A stretch of 64,000 bases of DNA, taken from NCBI RefSeq assembly GCF_004010195.1, contig NC_057719.1, positions 43,926,847 through 43,990,846 on the forward strand, read 5' to 3'. The translations under genes and the position numbers were made by a program. Below the pieces are notes generated by a model, which ran no database searches, was not told where the DNA came from, and saw only the letters and a program-made list of their open reading frames with translations. Source of the DNA: Chiloscyllium plagiosum (lineage: Eukaryota). This document shows positions 210-58,726 of this stretch, in pieces (the stretch's first letter is position 1; each line of letters starts with the position of its first letter).

Positions 210-1160
210 GTTTTATTCACTAGTGGGACATGGGCATCACTGGCTGACCAGCATTTATTGCCTGGACCTAGTTGCCCTTGAGAAAGTAGCAGTGAGCTGC
301 CTTTTTGAACCTTTGCAGTCCACAAGATTTTGACTAAGAGATAGTAAAGGACTGGCAATATATTTCCAAGTCATGGATGAAGGTTTGCTCGCTGAGCTGG
401 AAGGTTCGTTTTCAGAAATAGAAAGCAGGCTACACCACCAGTGTTTCATTCAGAGACTCACTGAAGATGTTACTGAGTATGGTGACGAAATGTCTGAAAA
501 ATGAACCTTTCAGCTCAGTGAACAATCCTACATCCAGAAGCTCAACCTGAGCTACAAATCTTCTCAAAGCTCATTTGCAAGTCAGGGTGGCGAGTGGCTT
601 GGAGAGGAATTTGCAGGTGGTAGTGGTGCTCCAATGCATCTGCTCTTCTAAACGGAAGTGAATGTAGGCTTGGAAAGTGCGAAGAATTAAGATGAATTTC
701 TGAAGTACATCTTGCAAATAGTACACACTGCTGTGACTGAGTAATGGTGGAGGAAGGAGCAGATGTTCGTGGATGTGGTGCCTATCAAGTGGGCTGCTTT
801 GTCCTGGACGGGGTCAACCTTCATGAGAGATGTTGGAGCTGTACCCATTTAAGTAAGTGGGAGTTTTTCATCACACTCCTATCTTGTGCCTTGTAGATGA
901 TGAACAGGTTTTGGGAGTCAGGTGGTATGTTGCTCTCCGGAGTATTCCTAGCCTCTGACCTGTTCTTGTCGCCGTGTTTTTGTGGCAAGTCCAGTTGAGT
1001 TTTCAGTCAATGGTAACTCCAAGAATGTGGATTAGGGGGTGTTCAATGATGGTAACACCACTAAATGTCAAAGGGCAATGATTAGATTGACTCTGATTGG
1101 ACATAGTCATTGCCTGGCATTTATGTGGCATGCATGTTACTTGCCACTTCTTAGCCCTAT
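210..1160 (-). mobile_element. Degraded non-LTR retrotransposon (LINE) 3' fragment
   Basis: Similar to 7250-8050 and 47500-48430 and carries the same 3' tail (...aaatgctgg...cccatg) as those copies; interrupted by the 374-572 insert. Confidence 0.55.
374..572 (+). mobile_element. Penelope-like fold-back insert (family C) with degenerate hammerhead
   Basis: Inverted arms at about 374-416 and 493-536, then a tail; TSD ATTT(C/G)CAAGTCA at 362-373 and 573-584; CTGAAGA..GAAATGTC core at 461-494. The tail resembles that of the 18.9 kb element. Confidence 0.7.
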
Positions 1161-1789
1161 TGTGGGGATGGAGAGAAAGCTGAAGTATTCATTCTCACAT
1201 CAATTGTTTCTTAGCACCAAGTCATGCAATACCAACTACAGTCTACCTCAAAAAAAAACTTTTGAAAGCTAGATGAGGGGCTAAAACACTGTTGAATAAC
1301 AAAATGTAGGGCAAAATAAAACCAAATGAGTGCTAGGTTTGTCGAGTGATTTTAGGGGAAAGGTTAACACAAAAGATGCACTACTTGGAAAATGACTCAA
1401 CTATTGCACACTTAAGGGAATGCTTAGGCTAAGGTAGAAAGAAGAATACAAAGTAGAAGTTCGGGTGTCACTGTAAGAGTGTAGGAACAAAACAGATTTT
1501 CAAATATATTGACAATCTTCAGAAGATGTATTTTCTTTTATAGAATACAAAATACACCTGGTAATTCCCAGAGAAATGAGGTGATTCATTTTGGTACACA
1601 GTATACGAAGACAATAAGGAGAAAGCAGTGGCATAATATTAACATCACTGGACTAGAAATGCAGACTCCTCCTACAGCAATGTAATTGAGCCTTAACAAT
1701 GCGGGATGGGCAATGCTGGCCTAGCGAGAGAGAACGCCACATATCCCAATGAATTAAGAGAACATATAAAAGCTACAACCCTAAAGGGA

Positions 1790-2700
1790 CCTGGCTATAC
1801 ATGTAGACAAATCAATAAGAAGTGGTACGATGTGTTGAAGTAGTTAATAAAGCATGCAGTATCCTGGGCTTTAACAACATGATAGAGTACAAGAGCAAGG
1901 AAGTTACGTTGACCTTGTAACTTGTAGTAGGCTCAACCTCAACCTTGTTCAACCTCAGCTGCAGCATTGCACCCAATTCTAGATCTTACACTTTAGAAAG
2001 GACGTGAAAATACTGGGGAGGGATTGAAAAGATTTACAAAAAGGACTCCGAAGATGAGGATCTTCAGTTATGAAGATAGACTGGAGCAATTAGAACTGTT
2101 TCCTTTCGAAAAGAGACGGCAGAGAGGAGATTAGGTTAGATTGGATTCCCGACAGTATGGAAACAGGCCCTTTGGCCCAACAAGTCCACACCAACCCTCC
2201 GAACAACAACTCACCCAGACCCATTCCACTACATTTACCCCTGCACCTAGCAATACGGGCAATTTACGCAACCTGCACATCTTTGGACTTCACACAGAGA
2301 GTTGCCCAAGGCAGGAATTGAACCCGGATCCCTGGCGCTGTGAGGCAGCAGTGCTCACCACTGAGCTGCCGTGCCGTCCCATCACTTAGGTGTATTCAAA
2401 TCATGAGATGCCTAGACAAAGCAGACAAGGAGAAACTGATCCCATTCAAAGGGATTGAGAATAAGAGGGCACAGACAAGTAATAGCAAAAAGCAAAGCAA
2501 TACACGAAAACTTGTTCATGCAGTGGTAATCAGGGTCTGAAATATGCTGCCCTGAGAGCATGGTAGACACAGGTTCAATCAAGGGATTCAAAAAGAAAGT
2601 AGACATGCAGGGTTACTAGGAGAAGAAAGGATAATGGCACTAGGTGAAAAGCTCATTTGGAGAGCTGGTGCAGACACAAAAGGGTTTCTGTATTCCATAT
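1790..2700 (+). mobile_element. Degraded CR1 LINE 3' fragment interrupted by a SINE
   Basis: Residual similarity to the ORF2 C-terminus of the CR1 at 24300-24900 (EYKS..., YEDRL...). Confidence 0.6.
2130..2381 (-). mobile_element. tRNA-derived HE1/V-type SINE (internally deleted)
   Basis: Reverse complement begins gggacggcacggcagctcagtggtgagcactgctgcctcacagcgccagggatccgggttcaattcc (A/B boxes) and ends in the CR1-like tail shared with the copies at 21958 and 43607. Confidence 0.8.
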
Positions 2701-3365
2701 GCTATAATATTATGTTCTATGCTATAATAATACTGTGATTTAATAATAATGCACACATTAACTTCCTGTTGCAATGTCAACAAATTTACACAGACAAAAT
2801 TAAAACATGATAACAGTTACTATGCAAGGGGTGCTTTTGACATCCAAGTGAAAATTCCTCTAGCAATGCTGTGAACAGTCTCATATTGGTGTCTGATACA
2901 AATGCAAGATGGGTTCCCTAAAATTTAAAACCTTGAAACTATGCCAATTGGATAATGGATATAAAATGCTGGCACACACAAAGTTAAGGGTACTCACATT
3001 AAAAAAAAACACTAAGCCAAATACTATAATGAAACACAAACATTAAAACCATATTTTGCTTTTACATCTTATAAATGGAGATGATGATATTAGAAGGGTC
3101 AATCCATATCCTATCCGTACTTCACTGCAGAACAGTTATCAACAGGATTTACAACCTAATCAAAGCTTACTTCAAATTATTTAAATTAATTTAAACAGTA
3201 ACTTTGATATTATTTTGTGGCAATTACTGAATAATTCCAAATTAAGTGAAAACAGGTAAAAGCTATGAAGCAATTTTTTGCACACTTACATACAGCACTT
3301 GCTTAAACATATTTGCTTTCAAAGCAAATTTTGGGAAAAATTATAAAACAAATTCTTTACTGCAC

Positions 3366-3636
3366 CTGGGAGCACAAGGGTGCCTATACTGAGCTCGCTT
3401 GTTGATGTGATCAACATAATAAACACCAAATTCAGGTGATTCCACTCGCTCCCACCCAGGTGGCAAGCCTTCTCTTTCAAGTGGATGGCTCCAATGAGTT
3501 GTGTTAGTATTATGGTCTATATAGTATTTTCTTCCTCGAATAGTCCAGTCCGCTGACCAACCAAGAGGAAGAGGCAATTCATCAGTACCATGATTTGTTA
3601 GGTTTCCCATGGATGTTGAAGGAACTCTTCCTATGC
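3366..3636 (-). CDS. SAV1: SAV1 coding exon 3 (two WW domains)
   Basis: Translates (G)[89 protein letters not shown], the tandem WW domains of Salvador. Acceptor tttag| at 3637-3638, donor |gtgcag at 3365; 271 nt, phase 1 in, phase 2 out. The downstream SARAH-domain exons were not found in 1-3365. Confidence 0.96.
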
Positions 3637-5609
3637 CTAAACATGCACAGAAAATAAATTAAATATCCTCCTTTAAAGCAAACAAACCATTATGTTGTTA
3701 TTTCTTAAAATAAAAATATCAAGTCTGAAGTTTCTCCAATATAAAATTGTGGATTAACACCTGCAAGGGAAAAATTTCATTCCAATAAACAGGAATCTGG
3801 AGAGACAAACTTGCATTTACATGGATGGAGTTAGAAAGGAGTCTGACTAGATCGTTATACAGAAAACTATGATAAGTTCAATGGGTCAAATGCCCTCCTT
3901 AAACAGCAAAGAGGCCCTTCAGCCTTCAATAATTTAACTGATATTTATATAAAAATGTGACATGTGATCAAAATCCCAATGTCATAAAACCCACTAATCT
4001 GGAACCATTGTAAACTATGGTAGATATTTGAGATGTACAATTTAGTTAGCTTTCACCGTCTTATTGATTACAATATTTGATGATGATATCAGAATAGTTA
4101 ATTTCAGAACTGACATTCAAACACTGTAGCCAAAACTACATATGCAAGTACAAAATGAATTTCCTGCGAAAGAACATGAAAACGTAATAGTCAAACGTGG
4201 ACTGAATCTATTCATATATCTAAACAACTTTCCTTCATATCAGGTCACAAGTAAATGGTATGGTAAACAACAATAGCTAAGTCATGCACTTAAAAGTATG
4301 GCCTTCAGATGAAGTTATAGGACTGATTACCTTATCCAGATCACAAAGACAAAAAAGCTCACAAATATTCAGCAGAAATTGTGGATACAATGCCAATATT
4401 TTAGAAATTAAGAAAAAGTCAGGTATGTATCTGGACCAATCAGATATGAGCACATCCAATTAGGAGTGAAAACCCAGGATATCAATATTGGCAAAATGTA
4501 AACATTGCTGGTAAACTATTGAATAGCGTCAGTTTCTTCTCCACTCAAAAATCGAATAGTTGGAACATAGTTTCTGTAATTCTTGCCTCTTTCAAAGAAC
4601 TGTCAAAAGGAAAAAAGCTGCTGCATATCGCAGTAGCTAAACATTCTTCAGTTTCAATAGCATGGTCTTCATGTCCAAACTAGCATAATGTCACAATTTC
4701 AACAAGATCTTGTGAACCTCTCGAGATAACCAGAATGGTTTCACTGGATCCATTTATGAGGAGATCTTGTTCTTGGCTAGTGCCTACAACTAGGCACTAT
4801 ATTAACTACAGTAGCAAACAAATGTCCAATGACAATACCACCAGTAGCTGCATGGCATCAAGACAAAGGTCGAAAAGAAATTCCCACTGGCATTAATCTC
4901 AACAATGGAGATAACCAAAGTCGACACCATCCTAGAAATTGTGATGCAGTTGAGTCTTGCCTCCCCATATAACAGAGATACAGACATAATCAGATAATTC
5001 TGACTTTTTAACCGGCAAATTGGTTTGTTGCTGACCATAAAAATATGTGGGTGCTTTTGCAGTTTTACTTTCCTTCACCTTGATTTTCCTACTGCACAAG
5101 TGCATTCAAAATCTGCTAGCTGTCACGATGTGCAGCATTACTAGAACAAATTCAAGGTAAACCAACTGCAGCAAATTACAAACGCAAATTTATCAGCATC
5201 CGTGAAGGGAAAAGGAAAAGACCGAATTATTGCTTTGCTATTTTCCTCAAATATCGTTAGAAGATCCTGATCTTAAAAATGCTGCTGTAGAAAACTTATT
5301 TACTTTCTCCAGCAATACTTCAGCGTGCTGCTCTGAAAATCTGATGTCAGCAAACTCAAATCTCAGCAACACGTCCACTTTTGAACGGTAGAGTGTTTTG
5401 CAATTGTGGGATAGTGCCACACTTTCAAGGGTGGGTGAAAGTGGCAGCTTTAGCCAAAATTAGATTGGAACATGGCATGGAGAGTGTGCTTTCTCTTACA
5501 TTCATCCTTTTAGGGAACATCCAGATTGTCTTCAGCACAGCGTTAGTAAGAGATTTTTGTACTTTGATTTTATTCAATTTTCTTCCTTTATTTGGAAACA
5601 CTGGCTTTC

Positions 5610-5775
5610 AAAGCACTGCTTCTTCATCAGGTGGTTGTGGAGCAGGACCTGCTTCCCCCCTCCCATTTATCTCTCAGCTCTTTGGCATTCCTGATGAAGG
5701 GCTTATGCCCGAAATGTCAATTCTCCTGCTCTTCGAATGCTGCCTGACTTGCTGTGCTTTTCCAGCACCACACAA
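5610..5775 (+). mobile_element. Penelope-like terminal fragments with hammerhead motif
   Basis: CTGATGA-AGGGCTTATGCCC-GAAATGTC at 5691-5718 followed by family-B terminal sequence; preceded by a short inverted family-A piece (cttcatcaggtggttgtggag). Confidence 0.65.
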
Positions 5776-7249
5776 CCAAAATACAACCTGTTTTATTGCA
5801 GATCAGACAGCCGTATCACAAATCAAATAGAATTCTTCATTTTTCTTAACTGTTGCCTTTGCTTTTTGCAGACCAGAGATTAATAATTGCCAAAACAAAG
5901 AAATACTTGAATTTGTATGATGCCTTTAATGACCTCAGGATGTCCCAAAACACTTTAAATCAAGTATATCCGCATTCTGAAGTGTATTTACCACGGAACT
6001 GCAAGACAATGCCACTGAGCTAGTGCTGGAGAAACTCAGGTCTGGCCGGCCCTGTAGAGAGAAAAACAAAGTTTCATTCAGAATTCATCACAACTTTACT
6101 TCTGAATTGGAAATCTTTGAAACAGGAGTTATATTGGATTTCAAATTCTATATCTTTCTTTCTTCACAGAAACAGCCAGACCTAGGAGTTCCTCCAGCAT
6201 TTTCTACTTTTATTCGGATTTCCAACATCTGCAGTTTTTTTTGCTTTTGTGTTTGAAAATGAAATGCAAACATACCACATCTAAGACATTTACATAGCTT
6301 TATGGCAGTTAATTAAGTAACGAATTAAGCAGACAAGCAGAAACAATTAGAAATACAGAAGTGCAATGTGTGGGGGTCAGGATGCTTCATGCTGGAGAGT
6401 AAAATCCTGCTCATCCATAGGTATAAAGCCAGGAATCTCAATTTTCAAGTCTCTTTGAAAAAAAACTTACTTAATGCGAAAAATGTTTGGACTCTTCTCG
6501 AAATTGCAGTGAAACTTCAGATGTAACTCATTTGTTACAGCGAGTTACAAACTGAACCGCATACAATCCCACGCAATGTCTCCTCTTCTTGGAAATAATG
6601 GACAGCATCGCCTGCTCAAATGAAGGCTTATGTTGGTGAAATACCCTGGTTAATCATATGTTGTGAATCTGACTCAAAAGATGCTTCACTTGCAATTTGT
6701 AAAACAGCAGAATCTTCTGAATTTTGCTATGATAGTTTTATAAATAAATAGATTTCAGCTTTTGCAATATTTAAAATTCATCATTATGTTAGTAACATTT
6801 CAAGAGAATCTTATATTAGGAAGTATTACATTCATACTTTGGAGAATTGTCTATACACTAACACTGCATTTGAACTTTAAATGACATGAGAATACCCTTT
6901 TCTCAATTAGCCAAGTCTTATACTTCTTGGCCTCTCCCCAATGCAGCTCTTAAAAACTTTTGAACTCTGGTGACATTCCCAAGTTCATAGACATAGACAT
7001 ATCCTTTTAATTTCACTGAGCTGAAGTACTGATAAAACCCAGCGCAACAACAACAGAAATCATGTCTGATCAACTATTAAACAATCAACTTCAAAAGTAC
7101 AAGCCAATAAAAATTGAAGAGAGGAATGATCAGACTGCAAATGTTCTATTGCCAATGCAGAGTCAGTCATTAAGCCTTGAGCTCGATTCCTAGACTTTGA
7201 TGAGCATGGAAGATGCAACATAATAATCAACCTGTAAATTCATTTTTAT

Positions 7250-9065
7250 TCACTCATGAATATCACTGATTGGGCAAGCATTTATCATCCAACTAGTTGA
7301 CTTTGAGAAGTTGATGGTGGGATGCCCTCTTGAACTGCTGCAGTCCATTAGATATAGGGCGCACTCACAATGCCTTTAGGATGGGAATTCTAGGATTTTG
7401 ATCAAGAGACTGAAGCAATGGCAATATATATCCAAGGCACATGCTGGGTTGTTTGGAAGATAACCTGCAGTGCTATCCAATCCATCTTCAGCTCTCGTCC
7501 TTCGAAATTGTAGCAGCTTGTCCTTCAAAATGTGGAAGGTGCTACTAAGGAGCCTTGGTGAATTTTTACAGTGAATTTTGTACATGGTACAAACTGGCTA
7601 TTAAGCATTGGTGATGGAGGAAGTGAATGCTTTTGGATCTGGTGCTTATCAAATAGGCTATTTATCCTGGATGGTATCAAGATTCAAGTGTTGTTGCAGC
7701 TGTACTCATCCATGCAAGTGGATATTGTAGAAGTAGGTATACAGACTTTAGGAAGACACGAGGTGAGCTACTCACACAGGACTCCTGGCCTCTGATCTAA
7801 TCTTGCAGCTACAAAATTTATATAGCTAGTCCAATACGTTTATGGTCAATAGTAACACCCAGGTTGTTGATAGTGGAGAGGAATTCAGTGATGGTGGTGC
7901 CACTGAATATCAAGGGGCAACAGTAAGATATAATTTTGGAGATGGTCTTGGCCTTGTCTGGCACAAATGTTACTTGCCACTTGTCAGTCCAAACATGGAA
8001 ACTGTGCAGGTCTTGCTACATTTGAACATGAATTGCTTCATCTCCCACACCCTCAACCCTGATCCCTACAGACACTGGTTTTGCTGGGAGTCCTAAATGC
8101 CAGACTGACAAATGCGGCCTTGATGTTTAGGACTCTCACTTTACTGCTTGAATTCATCCCTACTGTCCATGCTTAGAATAGGGCAGTAATAAGTTCATGA
8201 ACTAAATGGCCTTAGTGGAACCCAAACTGAGCACTGAGCAGGTTATCAATGCTTGATAGCATTGTTAATGGCACCTTCCATCACTTTATTAATGAACAAG
8301 GCCAGACTGATGGGCTGTAAATTGACCAGGTTCAATTTATCTTAATTTGTACAGGACATATCTGGGCAACTTTATACATTGTCAGGTAGATGTCGGTTTA
8401 GTAAGTCTACTGGAAAAGCTTGGCTAGGGATATGGCAAGTTCTGGAACATGTATTCAGTACTATTGTTAGAATTTTGCACAGGGTCCATAGCCTTTCCAC
8501 TATTCAGTGCCTCTAGATATTTCTTTATATCACATGGAGTAAATCAAATAGGTTCAAGACTGGCATCTATGATGCTGGGATCCTGGGAGATGGTCAAGAT
8601 GGATTACTGCTCATCACTTTTGGTTGAAGATTGTTGCAGATGCTTCAGCCTCATCTTTTGCACTGATGTGCTGGGCTCCCCCATCATTGAGGATGGGAAT
8701 ATTTGTAGAGATGCCTGCTCCAACAAGTTGCTTAATTGTCCACACTATTCATGACTGAATGTGGCAGGACTGCAGAACAAATCTGGTCCGATTGTGTGGA
8801 ATCGCTTAGCCCCTATTGTGTCACTTGTTGTCTGTGCTACTTGGCATGTATATTCCCCGTTCTGTAGCTCTACCAAGTCAAGATATCATTTTTAGATATA
8901 GCCAGTGCTGGTCCTGGCATGCTTCCCTTCACCCTTCACTGATCCAAGCTAGATGCTCTGCTTGATAGTATGGCAGAATGGGGAACATGCCAGGTCAGAT
9001 GGTTGCAGATTGCGTTGGAGTACTATTCTGTTGCTGATGGCCCACAGCACCTCATGATGCCCATT
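7250..9065 (-). mobile_element. Degraded LINE (clade uncertain)
   Basis: Long decayed sequence similar to 210-1160, 47500-48430 and 52170-52620; no intact ORF. Confidence 0.6.
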
Positions 9066-9375
9066 GGACTTAGGGGACAATCTAGTGACCTATTACTTAC
9101 TATGAAAACATATATAAGCCACTAAATGAGAAAAACTACTGCTCCCAAAATAAAGTGAAAGAAATGCTCAACACTCAATAGTCCTGTATTCAGTCTCAAA
9201 TCTCCATCAAAAGCTGAGTATCATTAAGCACAAGATAATGTACTTCTTATTCAGTTAAGCTTTTTAGTAAGAGATACATAATTGCACGAGTTATAATACA
9301 GTACTTATATCTAAAACCACAGACAACCATTAACAAAAAATCAATTTGCAGGCGAGCTTTTAATGGTGTGCCTTA

Positions 9376-10103
9376 CAGGTAGTTCTGGGATAACGAGTCA
9401 AGATTAGAGTGGCGCTGGAAAAGCACAACAGGTCAGGCAGCATCCTAGGAGCAGGAAAATCAATGTTTCGGGCAGAAGGCATTCTTCAGGGCTTTTGCCC
9501 AAACCATCGCATTTCCTGCTCCTCAGATGTTGTGCTTTTCCAGCACCACTCTAATCTTGACTCTAATCTCCAGCATCTGCAGTACCCAGTTTCACCTAGC
9601 TCTGGGATAATGCGCATTCTGGCAGCATGATTTAGCTATAACATGGCTGAAGAATATGGGAACAACATTTTGGAGAATGCTTACTTCTGTTGGCAATAGC
9701 GCATTTCCAGCTGGGATCAGTTCGCATGCTTCATTCTGCGCATGCATCAACGTGCATGCTGAAATCTCTGCTCTGCATGTGCACTGGTGTCCGTGCATGA
9801 GTGACGCCGGTGCCAGTTTTCATGCCATTCTGTGCATGTGCTGATGTCAGTTGCTGACACAGCAGCTTTCTGTGGGAGGTACTGTATAGAGAGCAGCTTT
9901 CTTTTTTGTTTAAATGTACGGTGCTAAATTTACTTTTCTTTCATTAATAAATATTATTTCAACCTTCATTCAGGATGCATTATACTTTGCTTGACCTTTC
10001 AGTGATTTTTGAATGATAATGAGTAATAATTTTTGGTCTGCCCCAAACCCACTTTTCCCATAGGCCCCATAATGCAACTACAGTGTTACAGGAGAACTAA
10101 CTG
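9376..10103. mobile_element. Probable Tc1/mariner (Tigger-like) non-autonomous DNA transposon
   Basis: TA|CAGGTAGTTCT... and ...AGAACTAACTG|TA imperfect terminal inverted repeats with TA flanks; the left TIR is interrupted by the 9394-9596 insert. Confidence 0.5.
9394..9596 (+). mobile_element. Penelope-like fold-back insert (family B)
   Basis: Inverted arms from gagtcaagattagagtgg (9395) to ccactctaatcttgactc (9563), plus a 33-nt tail; TSD TAG(T/C)TCTGGGATAA at 9380-9393 and 9597-9610. Confidence 0.75.
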
Positions 10104-10126
10104 TATATCCAACTTGACGTTATGTT

Positions 10127-10180
10127 GAATGTGTGGTGCTGGAAAAGCACAGCAGGTCAGACAGCATCCAAGGAGCAAGA
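10127..10180 (-). mobile_element. 54-nt Penelope-like terminal fragment (family B)
   Basis: tgtggtgctggaaaagcacagcaggtcagacagcatcc flanked by a perfect 11-bp TSD GACGTTATGTT (10116-10126, 10181-10191). Confidence 0.75.
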
Positions 10181-11055
10181 GACGTTATGTTAGCCAAGAA
10201 GAACTTTTTACTATTCAATATTACTTTAATATACACCTAAACTACTGCAAAGAGAGGATGGAACATCACAGTTAAAACCAGAATGCAACATTATCTGAAT
10301 ATTGAATGTCAACTTAGTTTGAATTCAAACTATGAGTAGGGTTAAACCTTTAACCTCTGGTTCAGAAGTAAGAATGCTACTGAGCAAAGCTGACAAGCAG
10401 CCTTGCTCATGAACTGCTTGGTAAGTTTACCTCAATTCTGTTATTTCACAGACCATTTCAGTGATTAACAATTTTCAGATTGTAAAGTAGCAGACATTAA
10501 AGACACAGGTCAATGGCAACACTTCACAGTTGGAATGATATACATGAAAACAGCTGTCAGGGATGCACGAGATAAATAACAACCTGACAAATAAGGACCT
10601 GACAAATTGAGAGAGTCATTGAGTAGATCATGGACATAAAGCAACTCTTGAATCATAGACCAATTTTGCTATAGCTTCATCTTCAGCTTGCAGATCTTTA
10701 ACAAATAAATCATAGTGAAACAATAATACAATGATTTACCTTTTAGTATCATGGTGCAATTCTGGACAGCCCTGAAGCAATTAATTTTGTACGCTTTGAA
10801 AACACTTTTGTAGCACAATTGAAAGGTTGTTTAATGTAAGAGCAAACTGGTTGATGTGCAGTGAGTCTGGATACACTAGTGAATCATTTACTTCAAATGA
10901 ACGGCATCACCGTTATACCAAGGAAACCAGATGTCTGAATAAAGTCCTAACTTGAATGTGCATCATTGGAATTACAGAAAAGGAGAGATCAAATATGTAC
11001 AAAGTTAAAAATCACACAACACCAGGTTATAGTCCAACAGGTTTAATTGGAAGCA

Positions 11056-11090
11056 CACTAGCTTTCGGAGCGACGCTCCTTCATCAGGTG
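11056..11090 (-). ncRNA. Minimal type I hammerhead ribozyme (sense to SAV1 pre-mRNA)
   Basis: Minus strand reads CAC-CUGAUGA-A-GGAGC-GUC-GCUCC-GAAA-GC-UA/GUG: intact core, stem II, palindromic AGCU stem III, CAC/GUG stem I. Confidence 0.8.
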
Positions 11091-11244
11091 ATTGTGGAGG
11101 GCTCGATCGTAACACAGAATTTATAGCAAAAATTTGCAGTGTGATGTAACTGAAATTATACATTGAAGGACCTGTATAATTTCAGTTACATCACACTGCA
11201 AATTTTTCCTATAAATGTTGTGTTACGATCGAGTCCTCCACAAT

Positions 11245-11279
11245 CACCTGATGAAGGAGCGTCGCTCCGAAAGCTAGTG
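11245..11279 (+). ncRNA. Minimal type I hammerhead ribozyme (mirror copy)
   Basis: cac-ctgatga-a-ggagc-gtc-gctcc-gaaa-gc-ta-gtg on the + strand. Confidence 0.8.
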
Positions 11280-12184
11280 TGCTTCCAATTAAACCTGTTG
11301 GACTATAACCTGGTGCTGTGTGATTTTTAACTTTGTACACCCCAGTCCAACACCGGCATCTCCAAATCATCAAATATGTAAATATTGAGCATTAGTAGAA
11401 GCTTAATTGAAACTGGCAAAAAATATTGATAACATTATCTTTTGAGGCTCTGACACAGTAAAGCACACCATACCCTCATCCTGTGGTGTAGCTCAACGGA
11501 GACATTTTAATATGACCATTAAAGACTGAGCGGGGGAAAAAAAATCATTAAACATTCAATGCTGCAACATGCCAATTACCAAAAATAGTTAAACCACAGG
11601 CAGAAAAGTCTAAAGTTAGTAGATGCTCATTTTGACTTTAGTCATTTGAAATTGACACAGATCAAACATAGAAATGCTGAAAGTTGAATCAACCTAAACC
11701 AGTAACCCTACTGCTAATTATAAGTCTGATTTTCAGAATATGGCCCTGATTTACTTCAAAAGGAAGAACTCTTTAATGTCGCCATGGATGCAAAGCTACA
11801 ATGCAAATTACTAGACCAACATTGTGAAATTAACATGAATACAGCAAAGATATTGATGCAGTTTCCCCTAAAGAATATACCAGTTCTTTAGTGACAGGAC
11901 GGCTGATCACTTCAAACTTGAAATTTCTTAGACCCTTGTTGAAACATTTAGTTTTAGCTAATACATTGTAGTAGTATATCTGGCAGCCATCTTTCAAATT
12001 ATACCATAAGAATCTAAACTTTAAGAACAAATAATGATGGTGTATTGTTGCACCATGTAACATTTAAAAAATAGCAAGTGAGAAAGGGGCAAAATTACAA
12101 ATCACACAATAACTAAATTCTCCATGTGATTTTGGGAAAAACCAATACCTGCCCCCAAATGATATTCATGAGCAGAAATCTTAC

Positions 12185-12631
12185 CTACTGGAAGTCTGGT
12201 TTGCCCCTGTGGTAAATGTGGAAAAGGATCAGGATTGTGATCATAATATCTATAGTCATTGCAGAACCGCTCAGCTATGTGCCGTCGTCTTTGTCCATCT
12301 TCATAATACGGTTCAGGATAATAGTAACGGGTAGAAGGCTGAACAGCATCACCATTTTCAGAGGAATTAATTTCAGCTAGAAAGGATTGTGACGAGACAC
12401 CATATTCTCGAGGAACTTCGGACAGATTACGTGTGATGTAGGAAGGTCCTGAAGGCCTGCTACTTTCACGTCTAATGATATCACGTGCTGGCCTTTGGAC
12501 TGGGCCGCGCACAAAACTTTGGTTTCGGGAAACAAGATCAATTGAGGGATAAACAGAAGTCCCCGGATCCACTAAAACATCAGTCCGCCTTGGAATGGTT
12601 GGCCCATGGCGAATAAATGAAGGCATTAAAT
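12185..12631 (-). CDS. SAV1: SAV1 coding exon 2
   Basis: (N)LMPSFIRHGPTIPRRTD...QTRLPV(G); acceptor tacag| at 12632-12633, donor |gtaag at 12184; 447 nt, phase 1/1, joins exons 1 and 3 in frame. Confidence 0.95.
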
Positions 12632-12723
12632 CTGTAATTAAGAGACAGACAAGCATTACACAATAGTTTATAGGTCTTTAGTACATGAAATCAAAATATT
12701 TTCTGTGCAATATTCAACATAAA

Positions 12724-13082
12724 GGGAGGGGATGGCCTAGTGGTATCATCGCTAGGCCATTAATCTGGAGACTCTGGGAATGTTCTGGGGCTCAGGATTC
12801 AAATCCCACCATGGCAGATAGCAAAACTTGAATTCGTATAAACAAAGAACTAAAATTAGGAACCTAGCGGCCATGAATCCACTGCTGATTGTTGGAAAAA
12901 ATCCATCTGGTTCACTAATGTCTTTTAGGGAGGGAAACTGCCACCCTTACCTGGTCTGGACTACATTTGACTCCAGACTCTCAGCAATGTGGCCAACTCT
13001 TAACTGCCCTCTGGGATGGGGAATGGGGGATAAATGCTTGTCTCGCCAGCAATGCCCTCATCACATGGATGAATAAATAAAA
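12724..13082 (+). mobile_element. tRNA-derived SINE with LINE-derived tail (second SINE family)
   Basis: A-box tggcctagtgg, B-box ggattcaaatccc, core ccatctggttcactaatgtc; ends in gaataaataa. Related partial copies at about 19550, 39375, 45400, 46500, 48590, 49440 and 58825. Confidence 0.7.
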
Positions 13083-13454
13083 AATAACCCAGGCACTTGC
13101 AGAGTTTAAAAGAGATTGTTACTATTGTGAATATATTGAACTTCATCCAGTTATTACTAGAAAACCACGTATTGAAATACACAGCAAAATTATGCATGTA
13201 GGATGTAGTATTTGCCTTGAAATTAATCAACTTCAATGACAAAACTCAATTCTCTAGTGACCCATATTTACATCTAGCAAAAAGCACACGCTTAATAACT
13301 TTCAGTTTTCTGAATTAAAGTTTTAACTCTAGAAATAATGAATTACCTGATTGAGGTAACTGATAAGCAACCCTAAAATAAATTAAATTTAACCAATCTT
13401 GGAGTTAATCAGTTAAAAGCAAACTTGGATTTATCTTCTCAAGTCAGAGTTCAT

Positions 13455-14030
13455 AGTCAAAAAATGTGGTGCTGGAAAAGTACAGCAGGTCAGACAGCAT
13501 CTGAGAAGGAGAGTCAACGTTTCGGACATACGCTTTTCATCAGGAACACGGAGGCGGAAGGGGGCTGAGAGATAAATGGGGGTTTGGGGAGGAGGTTGGG
13601 GGTTGATGGTGATAGGTGGTCATTCTGATAGGAGGGTGGATTGGATAGATGGAAAGGAAGATGGACAGGTAGGACCGGTCAAGAGGGCTATTTGAGGGTT
13701 GGACCTGGGATGACATTGGGGGGAGATTTGGAAACCTGTGAAGTCAACGCTGATGCCATGTGGTTGAAGGGTCCCGAGGCTGAGGTTGAGGCATTCTTCC
13801 TCCAGTCGGTGGATGGCTTTGATTTAATGGTGGAAGAGGCCCAGGATTTGCATATCCTGGAAGAAGGTGAGGTGGAGTTGAAGCAGTCGGCCACAGGGCA
13901 GAGATGGTGTTTGGTGTGTGCGGATCAAGATGTTCCCTGAACAGCTCAAGCTGGCATCCTGTCTCCCCAATGTACGATACCACATTGAGAACAACTGATG
14001 CAGTACATGAGGTGTTTGGATGTGCAGGAG
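13455..14030 (-). mobile_element. Penelope-like element 3' fragment with GIY-YIG endonuclease remnant
   Basis: Minus-strand ...YIGETGCQLELFREHL... then family-B terminus with a degenerate hammerhead (CTGATGA at 13537-13543); TSD GTC(A/G)GAGTTCAT at 13443-13454 and 14031-14042. Confidence 0.75.
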
Positions 14031-41338: not shown

Positions 41339-41880
41339 TTTGACTGGGATGGACAAAGTCAGAAGTCAGACAACACCAGGTTATAGTCCAACAGATTTCT
41401 TCGAAATCACAAGCTTTTGGAGCATTGCCTCTTCATCAATTGAAGGGAGAGAAGCACACAGGCACAGAATTTAAAGGCCAAGAGATCAATGGGCAGAGAG
41501 ATTAAAAAAATCATACAAATGGTGCAAGTGGAGTGTCGATAGGGTGAATAATAAGTCTTTGCAGGTGATCAAGAGTGTAAGACCATGTGTGTAAAGTGTC
41601 AAAGCTGACTAACAAGTAAAGGGATGACCTATAATCTGATTAAATAAGGCAGACAATAATTTCAAAAAATTATAAATAAGGTGGTGCTGGAGACAAACCA
41701 AATGACTAGAAAAACATAATAGGTATAAGAGTACAATGCCAAGGGTCTAACCAAAGTAATAAGTAATCCAAAACTGTACAAACTAATTAAGGTAGAGAGA
41801 TCATAACAACTTGACAAGGTGATTTTGTCAAAACAGGACAGTAAGGAAGATTTTGCAGATATAGAACAGTGTGGTGGGTG
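41339..41880 (-). mobile_element. Old Penelope-like terminal fragment related to family A
   Basis: caacaccaggttatagtccaacag...aagcttttggagcattgcctcttcatc resembles the arms at 11.0 and 52.0 kb; hammerhead core decayed. Confidence 0.6.
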
Positions 41881-46935: not shown

Positions 46936-48826
46936 CTAAAATATAAAATGTCCCCTGTTTACATTTAAATGTTAAATTCAGCCATTAAAAATTATGTCTT
47001 TCACAATATGGTTATAACCTGGAGAGTGGTGGTGCCCCTACTTCTGGATCAGGAAGCCTGGGTTCAAATCCCACCTGCTCCAGAGGTGTGTAATAGCATT
47101 GATTGATTAGAAAAATAGGTATAAGCTGCAATAGGCTCTTCATAAAAAAAAATAGAAGGCCTGTTTCTTGTGGCTGCTGTTACATTTGTTTTCAAGCTGA
47201 GGTTTTCACCTAATATTTTCAGTACACTGCTAATTTCATTCTTTGAAGCACCATTTTCAATAAATGATAAGGAAAACAATGTCATGAAACTGACTTAAAA
47301 TTGTACCCCAAACGTTTTCCACCGTGGGCAGGTATAAGTGAGACAAGACACTTTCTGAAGAAGGTTGGCTGAACCCGAACCATTAACTCTGATTTCTGTA
47401 CACAGACTCTACCAGACCTGCTGAGCCTTTCCAGCAATTTCTGTTTTAACTTCTAATCTCCAGCATCCACAAATCGGTTTTACTTTCTGATGGGTTTGAG
47501 GATTGAGATGAGTCAACCCACCTACTGTGTGTGGATGGGCTGATAAATGACAAGTTTTTTTGTGCCACACAAGTGGCAGGTAATGACCATCTCCATAAAT
47601 GGGGATTTCTAACCATTTCCCTTGACAGCTAATAGCATTGTCATCATTAAATTTCACTTTATCAACAACCTGGGCAGATCTCTGTTCACTATAAACCTAA
47701 CTGCGCCTGCCATAAAAATACAGTGGCTGTAAGAGCAGTTCAGAGGCTACACATTCTGTGACTAACCTGACAGTACAAAGCCTTTCCACGAGCTTCAAGT
47801 CAGAAGTATAATGGAATCATAACCACGTAAACAAATGGCAAGTATACTGAAGAAACCCAATACAATCTTGCACAAAATAGCAGGCATGATTGGTATCCAA
47901 ACCACCAACTTAAACATTAATTCTCTCCACCACTGGCGCCCAGTACTGTAGTATGTATCACATACAAGATGTACTGCTGCAACCTGCCAATGCTTCTTTG
48001 TTAGCATCTTCCAAATTCTTGACTTCTACTAGAAGAACAAATGCAGCAAGTGCATGGGAACACCAATTCCTGTAAATTTCCTCTCCAAGTCACACACCAT
48101 CTTGACTTCACTGTTACTGAGTCAAAATCCTGGAGCTGGCTACATAGCAGAACTGTGGGAGAATGAACCCTCTAAATTATGCAGCCAAAATGTACTATGC
48201 ATGGGACGGGACGGGCACAACCCTTAGGATGCACACATGCACAATAATATTAAAGAGGTCATGCAGCGTAACAAACGAATCATACACGGCAGAGAGAGGT
48301 TAGATGAAGCATTACTACAGATATACCTTTACAACATGGACTATAGTAAGGAGGCCACTGCCAACTTCTCAAGGGCAATTAGGGATTGTTAATAAATGCT
48401 TGTCTTGCCAGTGATGCCTGTACACCATGAATTAATTTTTAAAAATGTAATAGCTGACTCTACAGCACAGAAAGATACCTGAAAAACAAGTCCTGCCTAT
48501 TCTTTTGGTTCTGGACCAAATGCAAATTAAGTATTTGAAGAGATGGCTCATTATGAATAAAACTGGAATTAAAATCACAACCATATATCCATTGTTGATT
48601 GCGGTAAAAACCCATCTGATTCACTAATGTCATTTAGGGAAGAAAATGTGCCGCCTTTGCCTTCTCTGCTCTGTGTGTGACTCCAGACCCACAGTATTGT
48701 AGCTGACTCCTCACTACCTTCTAGGCAATTAGCAGTGACAATAAACGCTGGTCAAGCCAGGGCCTCCACATCCACAAACAGAAAAAATAGCATTTTCTTT
48801 GTATTTCCTTTTCTTTCATACAGTAC

Positions 48827-49190: not shown

Positions 49191-50189
49191 CTGAAAATGT
49201 GAGAAATGTATATGGACTTTTTCAACAAAAGTGGATCCATTCCAAAATGCAAATCTATTCATCACTTTCATTACACTTGCATGAAAGACTTTTGAATATG
49301 TACCATATGTAGCATCATTGTTATGTTATTCGACTAATAACATAAAGACACGATTTCTAATTATGTTACAGTATTTGGGGAAGTGAAATCCAATTTGGAA
49401 TTTGGAATAAAAAAGACTATTATTATTAAATATGACTTAACAATGACTGGATTGTTGCAAAAACCCAACTGGTATACTCATGCCCTTGAGGGAAAGAGAT
49501 CTGCTATCCGTATTTGATCTGGCTAACAGGTAACTACTGACATACAATCATGTAATTGGCTCTTAACTGCCTTTTTGAATGGCTTAGCAAGTCATCATGC
49601 CACTTGGTGATGGTAATAAATGTTAGTCATACCCACAGTCCATGAATAAATTAAAATAACATTTTTTTTCGCTAAGTGCATCAAATTTTTATTGGAGAGG
49701 TTTCTGCTGTGAGGATCAGTAAGATTTCTTGCTGTCTCTGACCCAACCTACTCTGCCCTATGGTGTCCCTCAAGTCTATCCTAGCCTGATAGTACGACGT
49801 GCTATTCACAGAACAATTTGCTTCTTTCTGGTACTCATCAAAAGACAAGCATCCATGACATTTGCACCATATTTAAAAGGCAGCTCGGCACCCAGAGAAG
49901 CACTGGCATACTGGACTTGGCCAACTCTGTCAAGGACATTTTTTAAAGCTGTCTAAGAAGAAGATGGCACTGTGATTCTTGGACCTGGAGGGTCCTGTGA
50001 GAGTGTCTGTAAGAGTGGTGAAAGTAGAAACCTCACAATATTTAAGATGTATTGCAATGCCAAAGCATACAAGACTATGGACAAGTGCTGGAAAATGGGA
50101 TTAGTTTAGTTAAGTGGTTGCTTTTGACTGGTGTGGATGCAATGGGCTGAAGGATCTTTTTCTGTGCTATAGGCCTCTATGACTCTATG

Positions 50190-50382
50190 TCAAGATTAGA
50201 GTGGTGCTGGAAAAGCACAGCAGGTGAGATAGCATCTGAGGAGCAGGAAAATCGACATTTCGGGCAGGAGTTGCCCAAAACGTTGATTTTCCTACTTCTT
50301 GGACACTACCTGACCTGCTGTGCTTTTCCAGCACCACTCTAATCTTGACTCCAATCTCCAGCATCTGCAGTCCTCACTTTTG
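50190..50382 (+). mobile_element. Penelope-like fold-back insert (family B) within a CR1 tail
   Basis: Inverted arms tcaagattagagtgg... / ...ccactctaatcttga (to 50349) plus tail; imperfect 15-bp TSD at 50175-50189 and 50383-50397; CR1 3' end lies at about 49995-50189. Confidence 0.75.
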
Positions 50383-50399
50383 CTCTACGACTATATGGT

Positions 50400-51519: not shown

Positions 51520-52625
51520 CTGGATCCCATGATGTCTCATGGTTTCAGGTTAAATATGGGGAAGGACACCTCCTGTTGATGATCACATACCATGCTTCCT
51601 CAGCTGATGAATCAGTCTCCTCTCAATGTTGAACAACACCTGGAGGATGGAAAAGGAACAAAATGTACTCTAGGTGGGGGATTTCAATGTCCACCACCAA
51701 GAGCAACTTGACAGTAGTATTAGTGATTGAGATGGTTGGGTCCTAAAGGACATAGCTGTGATACTGGGTCTGCAAAAGTTGGTGAGGGAACCAACAAGAG
51801 AGGAAAACATACTTGACCAAATCCTTACCAATCTGCCAGCTGCAGATGCATCTGTCCATGATGGTATCTGTAAGAGTAACCAGCACACAGTCCTTGTAGA
51901 GATGAAGTTCCACCTTCACACTGAGAATCATTTCCATCATGTTAAAAATCACAGAACACCAGGTTACAGTCCAACAGGTTTAATTGGAAGCACACTAGCT
52001 TTCGGAGCGACGCTCCTTCATCAGGACAATCACCTGATGAAGGAGCGTTGCTCCGAAAGCTAGTGTGCTTCTAATTAAACCTGTTGGACTATAACCTGGT
52101 GTTGTGTGATTTTTAACTTTGTACACCCCAGTCCAATACCGGCATCTCCGAATCATTCCATCATGTTGTGTGACTAAATGAGACAGACTTTGGACAGATC
52201 TAACAACTCACGACTAGGCATCCATGATGCAATATAGGCCATCCACAGGGCCAGAATCATACTCCAGCAGAATTTGCAGCCCCATGGCCTGGCTTATCCC
52301 CACTCAACCAATACCATCAAGTGATGCCAAGTAATCAATCCTGATTCAATGGAGAGTGCAGGAGGGGATGCCAGGAGAATGCCTAAAAATGAGATGTGAA
52401 CCTGCTGAAGCTACCAAACTGGACTACTTACATGCCAAACATCATAAGTAGCAAGTGATAGACAGAGCTAAGCAATCCCAAAACCAATGGATCAGATCTA
52501 AGATGTGCAGTCATGCCACATCCAGTTGTGAATGGTGAGGAACAACTAAACAATTCTCCACCTTCTCAACTAGGAACGGTCAATAAATACTGGCTAGTCA
52601 GCGACGCCCACATCCCATGAGTGAA
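51520..52625 (+). mobile_element. Degraded LINE with APE endonuclease remnant
   Basis: GDFNVHHQ, VREPTREENILDQILTNL and S.HTVLVE motifs; interrupted by the 51944-52155 insert. Confidence 0.7.
51944..52155 (+). mobile_element. Penelope-like fold-back insert (family A) with back-to-back hammerheads
   Basis: Arms 51941-52025 and 52033-52117, 7-nt loop; CTGATGA at 52034-52040 (+) and 52018-52024 (-); perfect TSD TTCCATCATGTT at 51932-51943 and 52156-52167. Confidence 0.85.
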
Positions 52626-52639
52626 TAAGACAAAAATTA

Positions 52640-55731: not shown

Positions 55732-55801
55732 CTGGTTGTTTAGAAGTTCTATAATTCTCTGAGCAGTTATTTTGTCATCCTGCAAAATCTCCACTTGTTG
55801 C
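55732..55801 (-). CDS. NIN: Ninein coding exon with GC donor
   Basis: (K)QQVEILQDDKITAQRIIELLNNQ; tttacag| acceptor, CAG|GCAAGT donor; 70 nt converts phase 2 to phase 0, exactly as the flanking exons require. Confidence 0.85.
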
Positions 55802-57521
55802 CTGTAAAGATTCAGCCTTTTAATATTGTACCTTAAACCTTAGCCTCACTAACTCACCTGACAAACAGAAGATAGATAGAGTAGAATACTCTTATCATAT
55901 TACCAACAAAGTCTGCAATTTTATACATTGATTTTCTATTTGTGCTATATGTTTAAAACCCTAGCTATAGTTTCAATAAAAAATGTTGAATAATAATGCT
56001 GCTTGACATAGTTTGACGATGAACATGACAAAACCAGTGGATATGTACAAGGGCTTAATCACGATTTTGTGAATGTGACTACATCAGATTGTTATTTGAC
56101 TAACCTTAGCACAGTTTTCCCATGTTGGGATCCCATGCCAGTTGTTAGTGAGGAGGACCTTGCATGATTGACCAAGTTGTGTTTGCTGACATCATGTCCT
56201 GGTACAATGTCTGTGCATCGTGCTATCTTGTTGATGTAGTTTACATTTAATTCAAGACAGCATGGCTGAGGTTCAGAATGGTGTTGCAATGGGGTAGGAC
56301 TTCTGCTTGATGCCACAAATTTTCACAACCAGAATGCACTTCCATGGGAGGTTATTTACAATACATTTCTGTATGAAGAGGGCAATCCCCCAAAGTGCTT
56401 CAGCAACCCTGAGGATGGCCTCCAATGAAGGCTTTCAGCAGGTTGTATTAAACTTGAACTGAAACAAGAGGAGACTGCTGCAAGACTCCTTCCTTGACTG
56501 GGTGACTTCAAAGTCTTTAATATCGCTTCCTTAGGCCTACTGGCAATGTACTCACTCTAGTCCCAGGAAGAAGCAGAAAATTGGGAAACCATTATTTTGG
56601 GTGGGATCACTGAGAATCAACTCTGAGACTGCAGCAATGTCTTTAAAATCCACTGCTGGGGTTATCCATTAAAATGGAAGCCATGGCTGAGATTTCATGT
56701 GAATGAGTTGTCCATCACTGGCCTGAAGCTACAAGTGAATTCTGTGTCATTCATGAAGATGTAGTTTTTCCTTTCTTAAAGCAGGATGTCCTGGTCAATC
56801 ATAACACTTTCATAACACCCCTCTACTGCCACCATTAGGTACAAAACCAAGTGTAATGTCATAGTTTATTTCGACATGTTGTTGCTACTTCTTAGGCTGT
56901 GTCCATCTATACAGCAATAATTAAGGAGAAGTTTTATACATATATTGTATGTTTGTATGAGCAAGAAAACGCAACAAGTAAAAACTGCAAATCAAAATTT
57001 TAAAATGTTCTAAAACAGTCAAATAAATGCTAATTAATAAATTACCTTTTTAAATTATTCTAATGGCACTAAAAACGACAACCTTAATAGTTGAAGCATT
57101 TAAATTCAAATGACCATTCTGGAACTGAATGTTACTGCCTGTAATGGTGACCATGCTGCAACGTTCCAGCAAATCACAGTGCAAACTGGAGGAGTCTTCA
57201 GACGAGGCACTTTACAGCCTTCTGGGCTCAATATTGAGTTCAACACCTTAGATTGTGAACCCACTCCCAATTCCTCCCATTCTTTTTAGCTTTACTTGTT
57301 ACTAATTCTCCATCTTCTCTCCCCTCTTCCCACTCCAAATGGGACTGTTCTTTCCAATCTGGCAGTTGACACACCGTCATACTGTCATTCTCACATTCCA
57401 ATTACTTAATCTGACATCCTTTCTCCCCCTCACTTCATCTTCCCTCTCCCGCTATTGCATAAAATGGTGGATCATCCACTTCACATCAGCTCTGATGAAG
57501 AGTCATCTAGATTGAAATGTA

Positions 57522-58726
57522 GTTGAAAAATGTGGTGCTGGAAAAACACAGCAGGCCAGGCAGCATCCGAGGAGCAGGAGAATCAATGTTTCAGGCATAA
57601 GTCCTTCTTCAGGAATGAGGCTGGTGTGCCAAGCAGGCTGAGATAAAAGGTAGCGGGGATGGAATTTGGGGGAGGGGCGCTGGGAATACGATAGGTGGAA
57701 GGAGGAGGGTGAGGGTGAGGGTGATAAGCCGGAGAGGGGGTGGGGGTGGAGAGGTCGGGAAGAAGATTGCAGGTCAAGAGGGCGGTGCTGAATCCGGGGG
57801 TTGGGACTGAGATAAGGTGGGGGGAGGGGAAATGAAGGAGCTGGAGAAATCTACATTCATCCCGTGTGGTTGGAGGTTCGACGATGCTCTTCACCGCATC
57901 TCCTCCACTTCCTGCTCCTCCGCCCTTGAACCCTGCCCCACGAATCGTCACCAAGACAGAACCCCACTGGTCCTCACCTTCCACCCCACCAACCTCCGGA
58001 TACATCGTATCATCCTCCGTCATTTCCGCCACCTCCACACAGACCCTACCACCTGGGATATATTTCCCTCCCTACCCCTATCATCGTTCCGGAGAGACCA
58101 CTCCCTCCGTGACTCCCTCGTCAGGTCCATACCCCCCCACCAACCCAACCTCCACTCCCGGCACCTTCCCCTGCAACCGCAAGAAGTGCAAAACTTGAGC
58201 CCACACCTCCCCCCTCACCTCCCTCCAAGTCCCCAATGGATCCTTCCATGTCCGTCGCAAATTCACCTGCACCTCCACACACACCATTTACTGTATCTGC
58301 TGCACCCGATGTGGTCTACATTGGGGAGACAGGCTGCCTACTTGCGGAACATTTCAGGGAACACCTCTGGGACACCGACAACAACCAACCCAACCGCCCT
58401 GTGGCTGAACACTTTAACTCCATCTCCCACTCCGCCAAGGACATGCAGGTCCTTGGCCTCCTCCATCGCCAGACTCTGACCACATGATGCCTGGAGGAAG
58501 AGCGCCTCATCTTCCGCCTAGGAATCCTCCAACCACACGGGATGAATGTAGATTTCTCCAGCTTCCTNNNNNNNNNNNNNNNNNNNNNNNNNNNNNNNNN
58601 NNNNNNNNNNNNNNNNNNNNNNNNNNNNNNNNNNNNNNNNNNNNNNGATGCTGCCTGGTCTGCTGTGTTTTTCCAGCACCACATTTTTCAACTCTGGTCT
58701 CCAGCATCTACAGTTCTCACTTTCTC
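57522..58726 (+). mobile_element. Penelope-like element (RT C-terminus + GIY-YIG remnant) with inverted 5' arm
   Basis: + strand remnant PLVLTFHP...FRRDHSLRDSLVRS...GTFPCNRKKCKT...IYC..C..C..YIGETG..L.EHFREH...PVAEHFN; left arm about 57521-57876 inverted; perfect 15-bp TSD CTAGATTGAAATGTA at 57507-57521 and 58727-58741. Confidence 0.88.
58568..58646. other. Assembly gap (79 N)
   Basis: Run of N inside the right arm of the fold-back element. Confidence 0.99.

Follow-up and report, generated by a model that had tools for sequence, protein, structure and literature searches.

Truncated Penelope-like inserts with minimal hammerhead ribozyme motifs at the SAV1 locus of a shark, and a poly(A) site in one of their families

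Host genes and inserts

The window analyzed here is a stretch of 64,000 nt of vertebrate DNA (40% G+C) from the shark Chiloscyllium plagiosum, contig NC_057719.1, positions 43,926,847 to 43,990,846. It contains many short inserts derived from the pseudo-long terminal repeats (pLTRs) of Penelope-like elements (PLEs), and most of these carry a hammerhead ribozyme motif. Unless stated otherwise, counts of hammerheads, inserts and arms refer to this window. Two genes on the minus strand flank a central intergenic region. SAV1 (Salvador homolog 1) lies at 3344-21658(-), with exon-containing frames at 3344-3658, 12105-12677 and 21353-21658; the exon at 3344-3658 matches with an E-value of 2e-46, which confirms SAV1 as a host of intronic inserts. 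The second gene, at 32242-64000(-), consists of a run of coiled-coil exons up to the window end. It had been named as NIN in a first-pass annotation of this DNA. The minus-strand coiled-coil exons fit that name and the Atlas cluster so labeled ranks second among the matches, but this is nothing firmer than a lead, and the gene is called NIN-like here. Between the genes is a near-intact CR1/L2-type LINE ORF2, encoding an endonuclease and a reverse transcriptase (RT) in two frames at 22419-24895.

The window was compared with three DNA runs of the same species, with contigs from two studies of a sister species that span a stretch with five inserts (9394, 10127, 11000, 13455 and 18942), and with one poly(A) single-cell RNA run of the same species (one sample, about 2% of the run, 12.96 million reads). 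The RNA reads that fit the analyzed stretch number 4,384 and lie nearly all over repeats; SAV1 exon 2 has zero depth in this sampled run. There is no clear excess of A-to-I editing, with A>G at 59 and T>C at 39 places in the RNA versus 50 and 31 in the same-species DNA. For SAV1 exon 2 (12158-12607), run X5 has, besides the matching contig at depth 178, a second contig with 42 differences, possibly a paralogous or processed copy or mixed RNA.

The inserts belong to at least five pLTR families (A to E) of Neptune and Poseidon type. Seven are two-armed, and in all seven one tail-less and one tailed arm are joined at their 5' ends, head to head, the tail being about 30-38 nt long. The family A insert at 11000-11368, bounded by a 12-bp target site duplication (TSD; 10988-10999 and 11369-11380), consists of a tail-less arm, 11000-11167(-), with a whole core at 11087, a 5-nt filler and a tailed arm, 11173-11368(+), with a whole core at 11248. 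The other, at 51944-52155 in a NIN-like intron (12-bp TSD), has arms that end 1 and 8 nt before their cores at 52024(-) and 52034(+). Family C, of Poseidon type, is represented at 18942-19533 (12-bp TSD) by a left arm, 18942-19321(-), with an endonuclease C-terminal remnant and a core at 19014 carrying the change U4C, and by a right tailed arm, about 19324-19533(+), with its core at 19431. The C-related family D insert at 374-572 joins a tail-less arm, 374-417(-), to a tailed one, 418-572(+), with a core at 461 and a TSD at 362-373 and 573-584. Family B contributes three two-armed inserts: 9394-9596 in a SAV1 intron (decayed core at 9489(-), 14-bp TSD), 50190-50382 (both arms ending inside stem II; 15-bp TSD with two mismatches in a tandem-like target) and 57522-58726 (15-bp TSD). 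The left arm of the last, 57522-57876(-), has its core at 57612, and the right tailed arm, about 57880-58726(+), carries thumb, Cys linker and GIY-YIG remnants; a gap of 79 Ns at 58568-58646 covers its hammerhead. This insert lies inside the hammerhead of an old family E copy of Neptune type, 57110-57521(+), with an endonuclease C-terminal remnant at 57110-57277 and its core at 57492, which resumes at 58742-58800 past the nested insert.

Five TSD-bounded arms stand alone, all tail-less. Those of family B are a coreless arm at 10127-10180(-) with an 11-bp TSD, also found in the sister species; 13455-14030(-), with a 12-bp TSD, a Neptune-type endonuclease remnant at 13630-14022 and a core at 13543 whose stem II is broken; and two intergenic arms, 26040-26285(+), with a core at 26192, a palindrome decayed to ACAU and a 15-bp TSD, and the 95-bp arm 26973-27067(+), which starts 4 nt before its whole core at 26977 and has an 11-14-bp TSD. 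The first 15 bases of the former (26040-26054), between TSD and B arm, match nothing in the window and may be filler or a tailed arm, very short and inverted. The fifth lone arm, a B-type arm of 42 bp at 29214-29255(+), lies between 100-bp direct duplicates (29114-29213 and 29256-29355) that are 99% identical; the duplication 29114-29355 is either an unusually long TSD or a product of assembly or repair. The remaining copies are older. At 5587-5772 an old A-like arm, 5587-5649(-), with a core at 5630, U16.1 changed to C and AATAAA 10 nt behind the site, meets a tail-less family B arm, 5650-5772(+), with a core at 5691 and a broken closing pair of stem I, head to head. A single event would require template RNAs of two families; that the arms became neighbors by chance, with a deletion, is as likely. 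A decayed A-like arm at 41330-41441(-) has lost its core, and an old decayed pLTR copy of a further subfamily, with a hammerhead and apparently a tail, lies at approximately 47355-47470(+).

TSDs were found for 12 of 14 candidate inserts, 11-15 bp long in 11 and 100 bp in one; none was found for 5587-5772, 41330-41441 or family E. Among 150 random zone pairs a score of 9 was reached by eight and a score of 11 by one, so for the TSDs that score 9 (374, 13455 and 50190) the case depends on where they lie, at the ends of the elements. At 18930-18941 and 50175-50189, inserts of different families stand in the same short tandem motif ending another repeat; the motif may be a preferred target, or it may inflate the TSD score. 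All nine intronic inserts with a TSD have their tail-less arm in the sense orientation of the host gene (minus), and the three intergenic single arms are plus. This strand rule is post hoc and based on small numbers, and the older TSD-less copies at 5650, 41330 and 57492 break it.

Hammerhead motifs, families and age

At all twelve hammerhead positions listed by the first-pass annotation, a CUGANGA core is present with stem II and GAAA after it. Ten of these motifs lie within TSD-bounded inserts, 5691 and 57492 being the exceptions. The minus-strand positions given there are offset into the motif by 4-6 nt, the cores having their first C at 11087, 13543, 52024 and 57612. Further cores are present at 5630(-), 9489(-) and 19014(-, U4C), with decayed copies at 41438(-) and 47355(+). 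A strict scan requiring at least 3 pairs in stem II gave 11 matches, compared to a mean of 0.87 and a maximum of 4 in 100 block-wise dinucleotide shuffles; with at least 4 pairs it gave 9 versus 0.27. A single additional base precedes stem II in all of the cores, a feature described for PLE minimal hammerheads (PMC4209133), and a pattern lacking this base matches only twice.

The three stem-II families proposed earlier (GGAGC/GCUCC, GGGC/GCCC and GUCACC/GGGGAC) are all present. Family A has stem II GGAGC/GCUCC and the palindrome AGCU; family B, with several subfamilies, has GGGC/GCCC and ACGU; family C and its relative D have a 7-bp stem II. The stem sequences differ among families A, B, C and D yet still pair. 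The 4-nt palindromic stem III (AGCU or ACGU) is perfect in 7 of the 12 listed motifs; in the other five ACGU has become AUGU or ACAU, a pattern consistent with CpG decay that points to neutral ageing after insertion. Six of the 12 (461, 11087, 11248, 19431, 26977 and 52034) are structurally whole, with core, stem II, stem III and at least two closing pairs of stem I. The features of the minimal type I hammerhead, namely core, bulged base, G10.1-C11.1, palindromic stem III and NUH site, are likewise complete in 6/12, and the class had been called correctly. Stem I of the whole copies has 2-3 contiguous pairs, compared to 4-5 bp in Schistosoma; a 2-bp precedent exists in D. virilis (PMC4209133). 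The shark copies resemble the minimal hammerheads of metazoan PLE pLTRs in the core, the extra base between 9 and 10.1, G10.1-C11.1 and the palindromic 15.2-16.2, and also in consisting mostly of solo copies from truncated PLEs with some opposite-strand pairs, 100-700 bp apart in the published cases (PMC4209133).

The Penelope-like origin and the presence of several lineages, both proposed from the letters of this DNA, hold. No Pfam match was obtained on the PLE frames of the window, and their identity depends on homologues, three of which come from the carpet sharks Chiloscyllium punctatum and Rhincodon typus. The remnants are 54-86% identical (best tblastn segments) to shark proteins, among which P0002 carries RVT_1 and GIY-YIG. 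Compared directly with P0002, frame 13744-14067 gives a non-significant E-value of 0.46; tblastn across frames gives 7e-13. The window itself has thumb and endonuclease remnants only, and its membership among endonuclease-positive (EN+) PLEs is established through these relatives. GIY-YIG coding remnants had been noted in three inserts, and tblastn confirms all three as coding, but at 18935-19321 only the C-terminal endonuclease half remains, without the GIY-YIG motif itself; a fourth remnant is at 57110-57277. The family B and E remnants match Neptune-type proteins in which an RT is combined with a Cys linker and GIY-YIG, E through a C-terminal match only. A Cys-rich CX2-5CxxC linker before GIY-YIG, a feature of the Neptune clade (PMC8557442), is present in P0001/P0002 and in window frames 57836-58198 and 58133-58324. 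The family C remnant (18935-19321) matches the Poseidon-type proteins P0004, P0006 and P0105, which on inspection have no Cys linker between RT thumb and endonuclease; family D is assigned to Penelope/Poseidon solely because its DNA resembles that of C. None of the coding remnants in the window belongs to family A. A metagenome scan recovered two contigs of one element (L001 1-1050 and L002 1-1470) and a viral-contig scan gave no matches. In L002 the family A core and stems are preceded, some 750 nt upstream and in the same orientation, by a Neptune-type endonuclease, and family A is tentatively placed with the Neptune type through this contig. The two contigs show a non-shark-like Neptune-type element, a core followed by AATAAA, rearranged with inverted segments, and probably come from animal DNA in the samples.

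One insert can be placed in time relative to the sister species. In that species, in one contig from each of the two studies, 10987 runs directly to 11369 with no letter between. This exact empty site, which lacks the family A insert plus one TSD copy, fixes the ends of 11000-11368 and dates its insertion after the species split. It was found for one of the five inserts compared. For insert 10127 a sister-species contig begins inside, and for 13455 contigs run into both ends; the former (shared) and the latter (apparently shared) look older. The earlier suggestion of recent activity thus stands for at least family A. Half of the listed motifs are decayed, and the family E copy has been split by a later insertion. 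The summed contig depth at 11054 and 11277 is 1.4-2.3×10^5 times single-copy depth in the three DNA runs, which is an order of magnitude rather than a copy number and suggests about 2×10^5 family A arms per genome. This agrees with the four young A arms in 64 kb, and not every arm has a whole ribozyme. The largest published counts of PLE hammerheads, about 9,000 in X. tropicalis and 4,000 in coelacanth, were obtained by a different, stricter method in a paper whose available text does not name sharks (PMC4209133); 126,247 motifs are given for the axolotl by yet another method.

Arm ends, folding and a poly(A) site

Relative to the core, the 5' ends of the arms lie anywhere between 487 nt upstream and 48 nt downstream. 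Of the 19 TSD-bounded arms, nine reach past the core by 43-487 nt or more on its upstream side, four start 1-8 nt before it, three end in the stem II region, one ends within 2 nt of the cleavage site and two have their ends 3' of that site. Sixteen arms cross the cleavage site (one by assumption, since its site is in the N gap) and none begins exactly there; thus the copied RNA templates were uncleaved. Junctions vary between near-identical copies, four copies run on into endonuclease coding sequence, and no head-to-tail tandem copies occur in the window. The joints 11094-11240 and 11095-11239, whose arm ends are both 7-9 nt before the core, recur in all three DNA runs (among the 15 of 3,450 joints listed). 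Contig ends of family A in the three runs pile up at 11369/11370 and 11001/11004, among the loose-end groups listed (24, with 8,191 more), and these piles indicate two termini for family A genome-wide. The inserts had been described as tiny non-autonomous ribozyme cassettes. With 5' ends varying from -487 to +48 and coding sequence in four copies they are more plausibly truncated insertion products, and the fixed length and ends and the lack of coding remnants that would mark a family like the short interspersed elements (SINEs) are not seen.

The head-to-head arrangement places the two ribozymes on opposite strands, so that no dimer can form within one transcript. In addition, since the 5' ends of the arms face each other at the center, transcription from either side reaches the antisense arm before the sense arm. 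In computed folds of the two-armed A and C inserts, the intact cores and the AWUAAA hexamers have an unpaired probability of 0.00 in both directions, compared to 0.34 for the core of the single arm 26973. On this folding prediction, an insert with head-to-head arms masks both its ribozyme and its poly(A) signal whichever strand is transcribed. For two molecules, the predicted active dimers of A, B and C have energies of -17.7, -13.3 and -15.7 kcal/mol versus co-fold minima of -32.7, -25.9 and -19.8; they lie 4-15 kcal/mol above the minimum and also above two folded monomers, in line with the weak or protein-assisted activity reported in the literature. The RNA run showed no pile-up of read starts or ends that would mark ribozyme cleavage; a product with about 30 templated bases would probably be lost from poly(A) data.

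A poly(A) site is in use on the sense RNA of family A, just behind the ribozyme. Among the 4,384 RNA reads, 663 end in untemplated poly(A), seen as poly(T) in front of 11027 in 366 reads and in front of 11030 in 297. These are among the largest RNA loose-end groups listed, and the depth at 11054 is 1,096. The window DNA has no A-run at the addition site. Read on the family A sense strand, both groups represent the same site in two sequence variants, with addition 13 nt after ATTAAA and ahead of a GU/U-rich stretch; in the minus-strand arm the hexamer is at 11047-11042 and the addition site at about 11029-11028, with a mirror ATTAAA at 11288-11293(+). The order hexamer, addition site, GU/U-rich stretch is the usual geometry of cleavage and polyadenylation. 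The hexamer starts 12 nt behind the predicted family A ribozyme cut. AWTAAA follows 5/5 A-type cores found by pattern and the core in both contigs of the metagenome element, compared to 0/11 other hits in the window. With about 80 aligned bases, the poly(A) reads span the ribozyme cleavage site. The site is 25-29 nt upstream of the tail-less terminus and upstream of both insertion termini, and an RNA ending there therefore cannot template either terminus from that end. The reads are not assignable to loci, and a genomic A-run in another subfamily may be a source of the poly(T) ends.

The poly(A) site is the new feature here; the element class itself is already known. No report of a poly(A) site in a PLE pLTR, or of shark hammerhead counts, was found in the literature searched, which left most subscription papers, supplements and Repbase/Dfam outside; the text of PMC2377424 contains neither 'polyadenyl' nor 'AATAAA'. 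Whether the site belongs to the element has to be weighed against its origin in one or a few host genes that have co-opted a family A copy at their 3' ends. The latter is a substantial possibility, at somewhat less than even odds: 663 reads in 12.96 million is a number that a few ordinary genes would yield, RNA and DNA have different consensus sequences upstream of 11167, and 48/242 RNA reads share a 2-nt deletion at 11317 that is rare in DNA. Such variants, unlike the bulk DNA, indicate that a subset of loci dominates the RNA. However, the hexamer is kept behind the cut in all five A-type cores and in the distant metagenome element, and the two sequence variants share one site. Co-option by host genes and use at the level of the element may also both hold.

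Origin of the inserts

The inserts are best explained as abortive, 5'-truncated retrotransposition products of several autonomous EN+ PLEs whose pLTRs carry a minimal type I hammerhead, the source elements being of Neptune type for B, E and probably A and of Poseidon type for C and D. We put the probability of this whole explanation at about 0.85. TSD-bounded insertion, head-to-head pairs with mixed tails or lone tail-less arms, variable 5' ends, copying through the cleavage site and neutral decay are directly observed. By analogy with the Poseidon element of Anolis carolinensis, PAc, studied in vitro (PMC11167929), an RT-endonuclease, predicted to act as a dimer, would cut both target strands 11-15 nt apart. 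From each 3' end, cDNA would be primed on uncleaved RNA at two adjacent internal sites about 30-38 nt apart. Synthesis of these cDNAs would end prematurely, in many cases at the ribozyme's front half, and the products would then be joined end to end. The ribozyme would serve the master element through weak, dimer- or protein-dependent RNA processing, and the genomic stumps would be mostly inert. If a two-armed insert is transcribed by read-through, its sense ribozyme and poly(A) signal would pair into a long hairpin as soon as they are made, and this masking would make it easier for host introns to tolerate such inserts.

The comparison with known systems is close. In PAc, two RT start sites flank the tail, both strands are cut and extended, and the template is uncleaved RNA; likewise no RNA-seq reads end at the cleavage site. 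The available text describes no poly(A) site between ribozyme and start sites, and its scenario is a multi-copy read-through mRNA (PMC11167929). Published EN+ PLE insertions show 5' truncation, an inverted adjacent copy and a 30-40 bp tail at one end (PMC8557442, PMC3846280), and all three are found here together with TSDs, the inverted pLTR and one-end tail in 7/7 two-armed inserts. Unlike those elements, the whole shark insert is often just two short arms, and the lone TSD-bounded arms are tail-less in 5/5.

Several points weigh against this explanation. No full-length element lies within the window and the autonomous masters are not seen, family A is tied to a Neptune-type endonuclease solely through a distant metagenome contig, head-to-head joining has alternatively been attributed to self-priming on an antisense template (PMC3846280), and the masking is a folding prediction only. 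Moreover, 7/19 arm ends fall in a zone of 23 nt within the ribozyme's front half. Such clustering may reflect a defined, short template as opposed to truncation at random; together with the recurrent joints, this zone points to a preferred stop near the ribozyme front.

The last point leads to an alternative in which the short copies are a true non-autonomous family, made from a short RNA whose start lies immediately ahead of the hammerhead; solo copies or the 5' pLTR would supply this transcript, and PLE protein would mobilize it in trans. The four arms that start 1-8 nt before the core and the two joints shared by the three DNA runs would fit this, as would the RNA pair directions, which favor element sense for A, B and C by about 2-5 to 1 in five of six main bins (the 18677-19027 bin, which contains a SINE, is near 1 to 1). 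We nevertheless regard it as unlikely, as nearly half of the arms (9/19) reach well upstream of the core and four copies enter coding sequence, near-identical copies differ in their junctions, and a family A RNA ending at the poly(A) site, lacking both insertion termini, offers no template from that end. Much less probable still is that the ribozymes are active and functional in place in the manner of retrozymes, through tandem dimer cleavage to circular RNAs or an effect on SAV1 or NIN pre-mRNA. Half of the listed motifs are structurally whole, and retrozymes are reported in one chondrichthyan genome (bioRxiv 10.64898/2026.07.22.740005). Non-LTR retrozymes also share with the shark copies the type I hammerhead, a PLE origin and the capacity for very high copy number, as in the axolotl, but they are head-to-tail tandems, each unit with a hammerhead, that give circular RNA (PMC7229834; bioRxiv 10.64898/2026.07.22.740005), whereas the shark copies are single or head to head. 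The window has no such tandem, the dimer fold is predicted to be energetically unfavored for A, B and C, the poly(A) reads cross the cleavage site without a pile-up, and stem III decays like neutral DNA. Finally, the motifs might be chance matches, or the palindromes miniature inverted-repeat transposable elements, microRNA precursors or assembly artefacts. An e-value search of the window against Rfam gave no hammerhead match, and its best matches on the inserts are microRNA families, all below gathering scores. This reading has next to no probability, as the motifs far exceed the shuffle control and the insert ends are unequal with a one-sided tail; the coding remnants and the empty site in the sister species already refute it. 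Sub-threshold Rfam microRNA matches also occur on two hairpin-forming stretches, 41234-41333 and 31945-32050, that showed no kinship to the PLE families in the searches.

A more specific organization of the family A pLTR can also be proposed, though we consider it unlikely. It would resemble a retroviral U3-R-U5 unit, with the RNA starting a few bases before the hammerhead and ending at the poly(A) site about 60 nt on. Such an RNA start was not seen in the RNA run. The full-length mRNA would then have the ribozyme region at both ends and the two RT start sites only in the 5' copy. Synthesis primed at the target would reach the RNA 5' end within 90-130 nt and stop there, much as strong-stop DNA forms, leaving many short arms. 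Long copies and a tailed 3' pLTR would require the synthesis to jump first to the 3'-end repeat. If true, this would explain why PLE inserts have no poly(A) and why element 5' sequence lies within the 3' pLTR, and also why a shark genome carries some 10^5 portable poly(A) signals and ribozymes, silenced by their head-to-head geometry.

A catch of truncated stumps is in itself ordinary, as the class is known, and the poly(A) site is its one testable new feature. The shark genome nevertheless holds very many natural records of insertion by a poorly understood mode of retrotransposition, and these fit the two-start-site result of the sole PLE studied in vitro. LTRs and SINEs carry and spread working AWUAAA signals with a GU/U-rich downstream stretch. 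The family A signal differs from these in lying 12 nt behind a hammerhead cut in a PLE pLTR, upstream of the insertion termini. Its position between the ribozyme and the RT start sites constrains the identity of the template RNA and makes the formation of pseudo-LTR and tail in PLEs testable by long-read RNA. The site also gives a very abundant repeat the means to end host transcripts, unless its mirror arm masks the signal.

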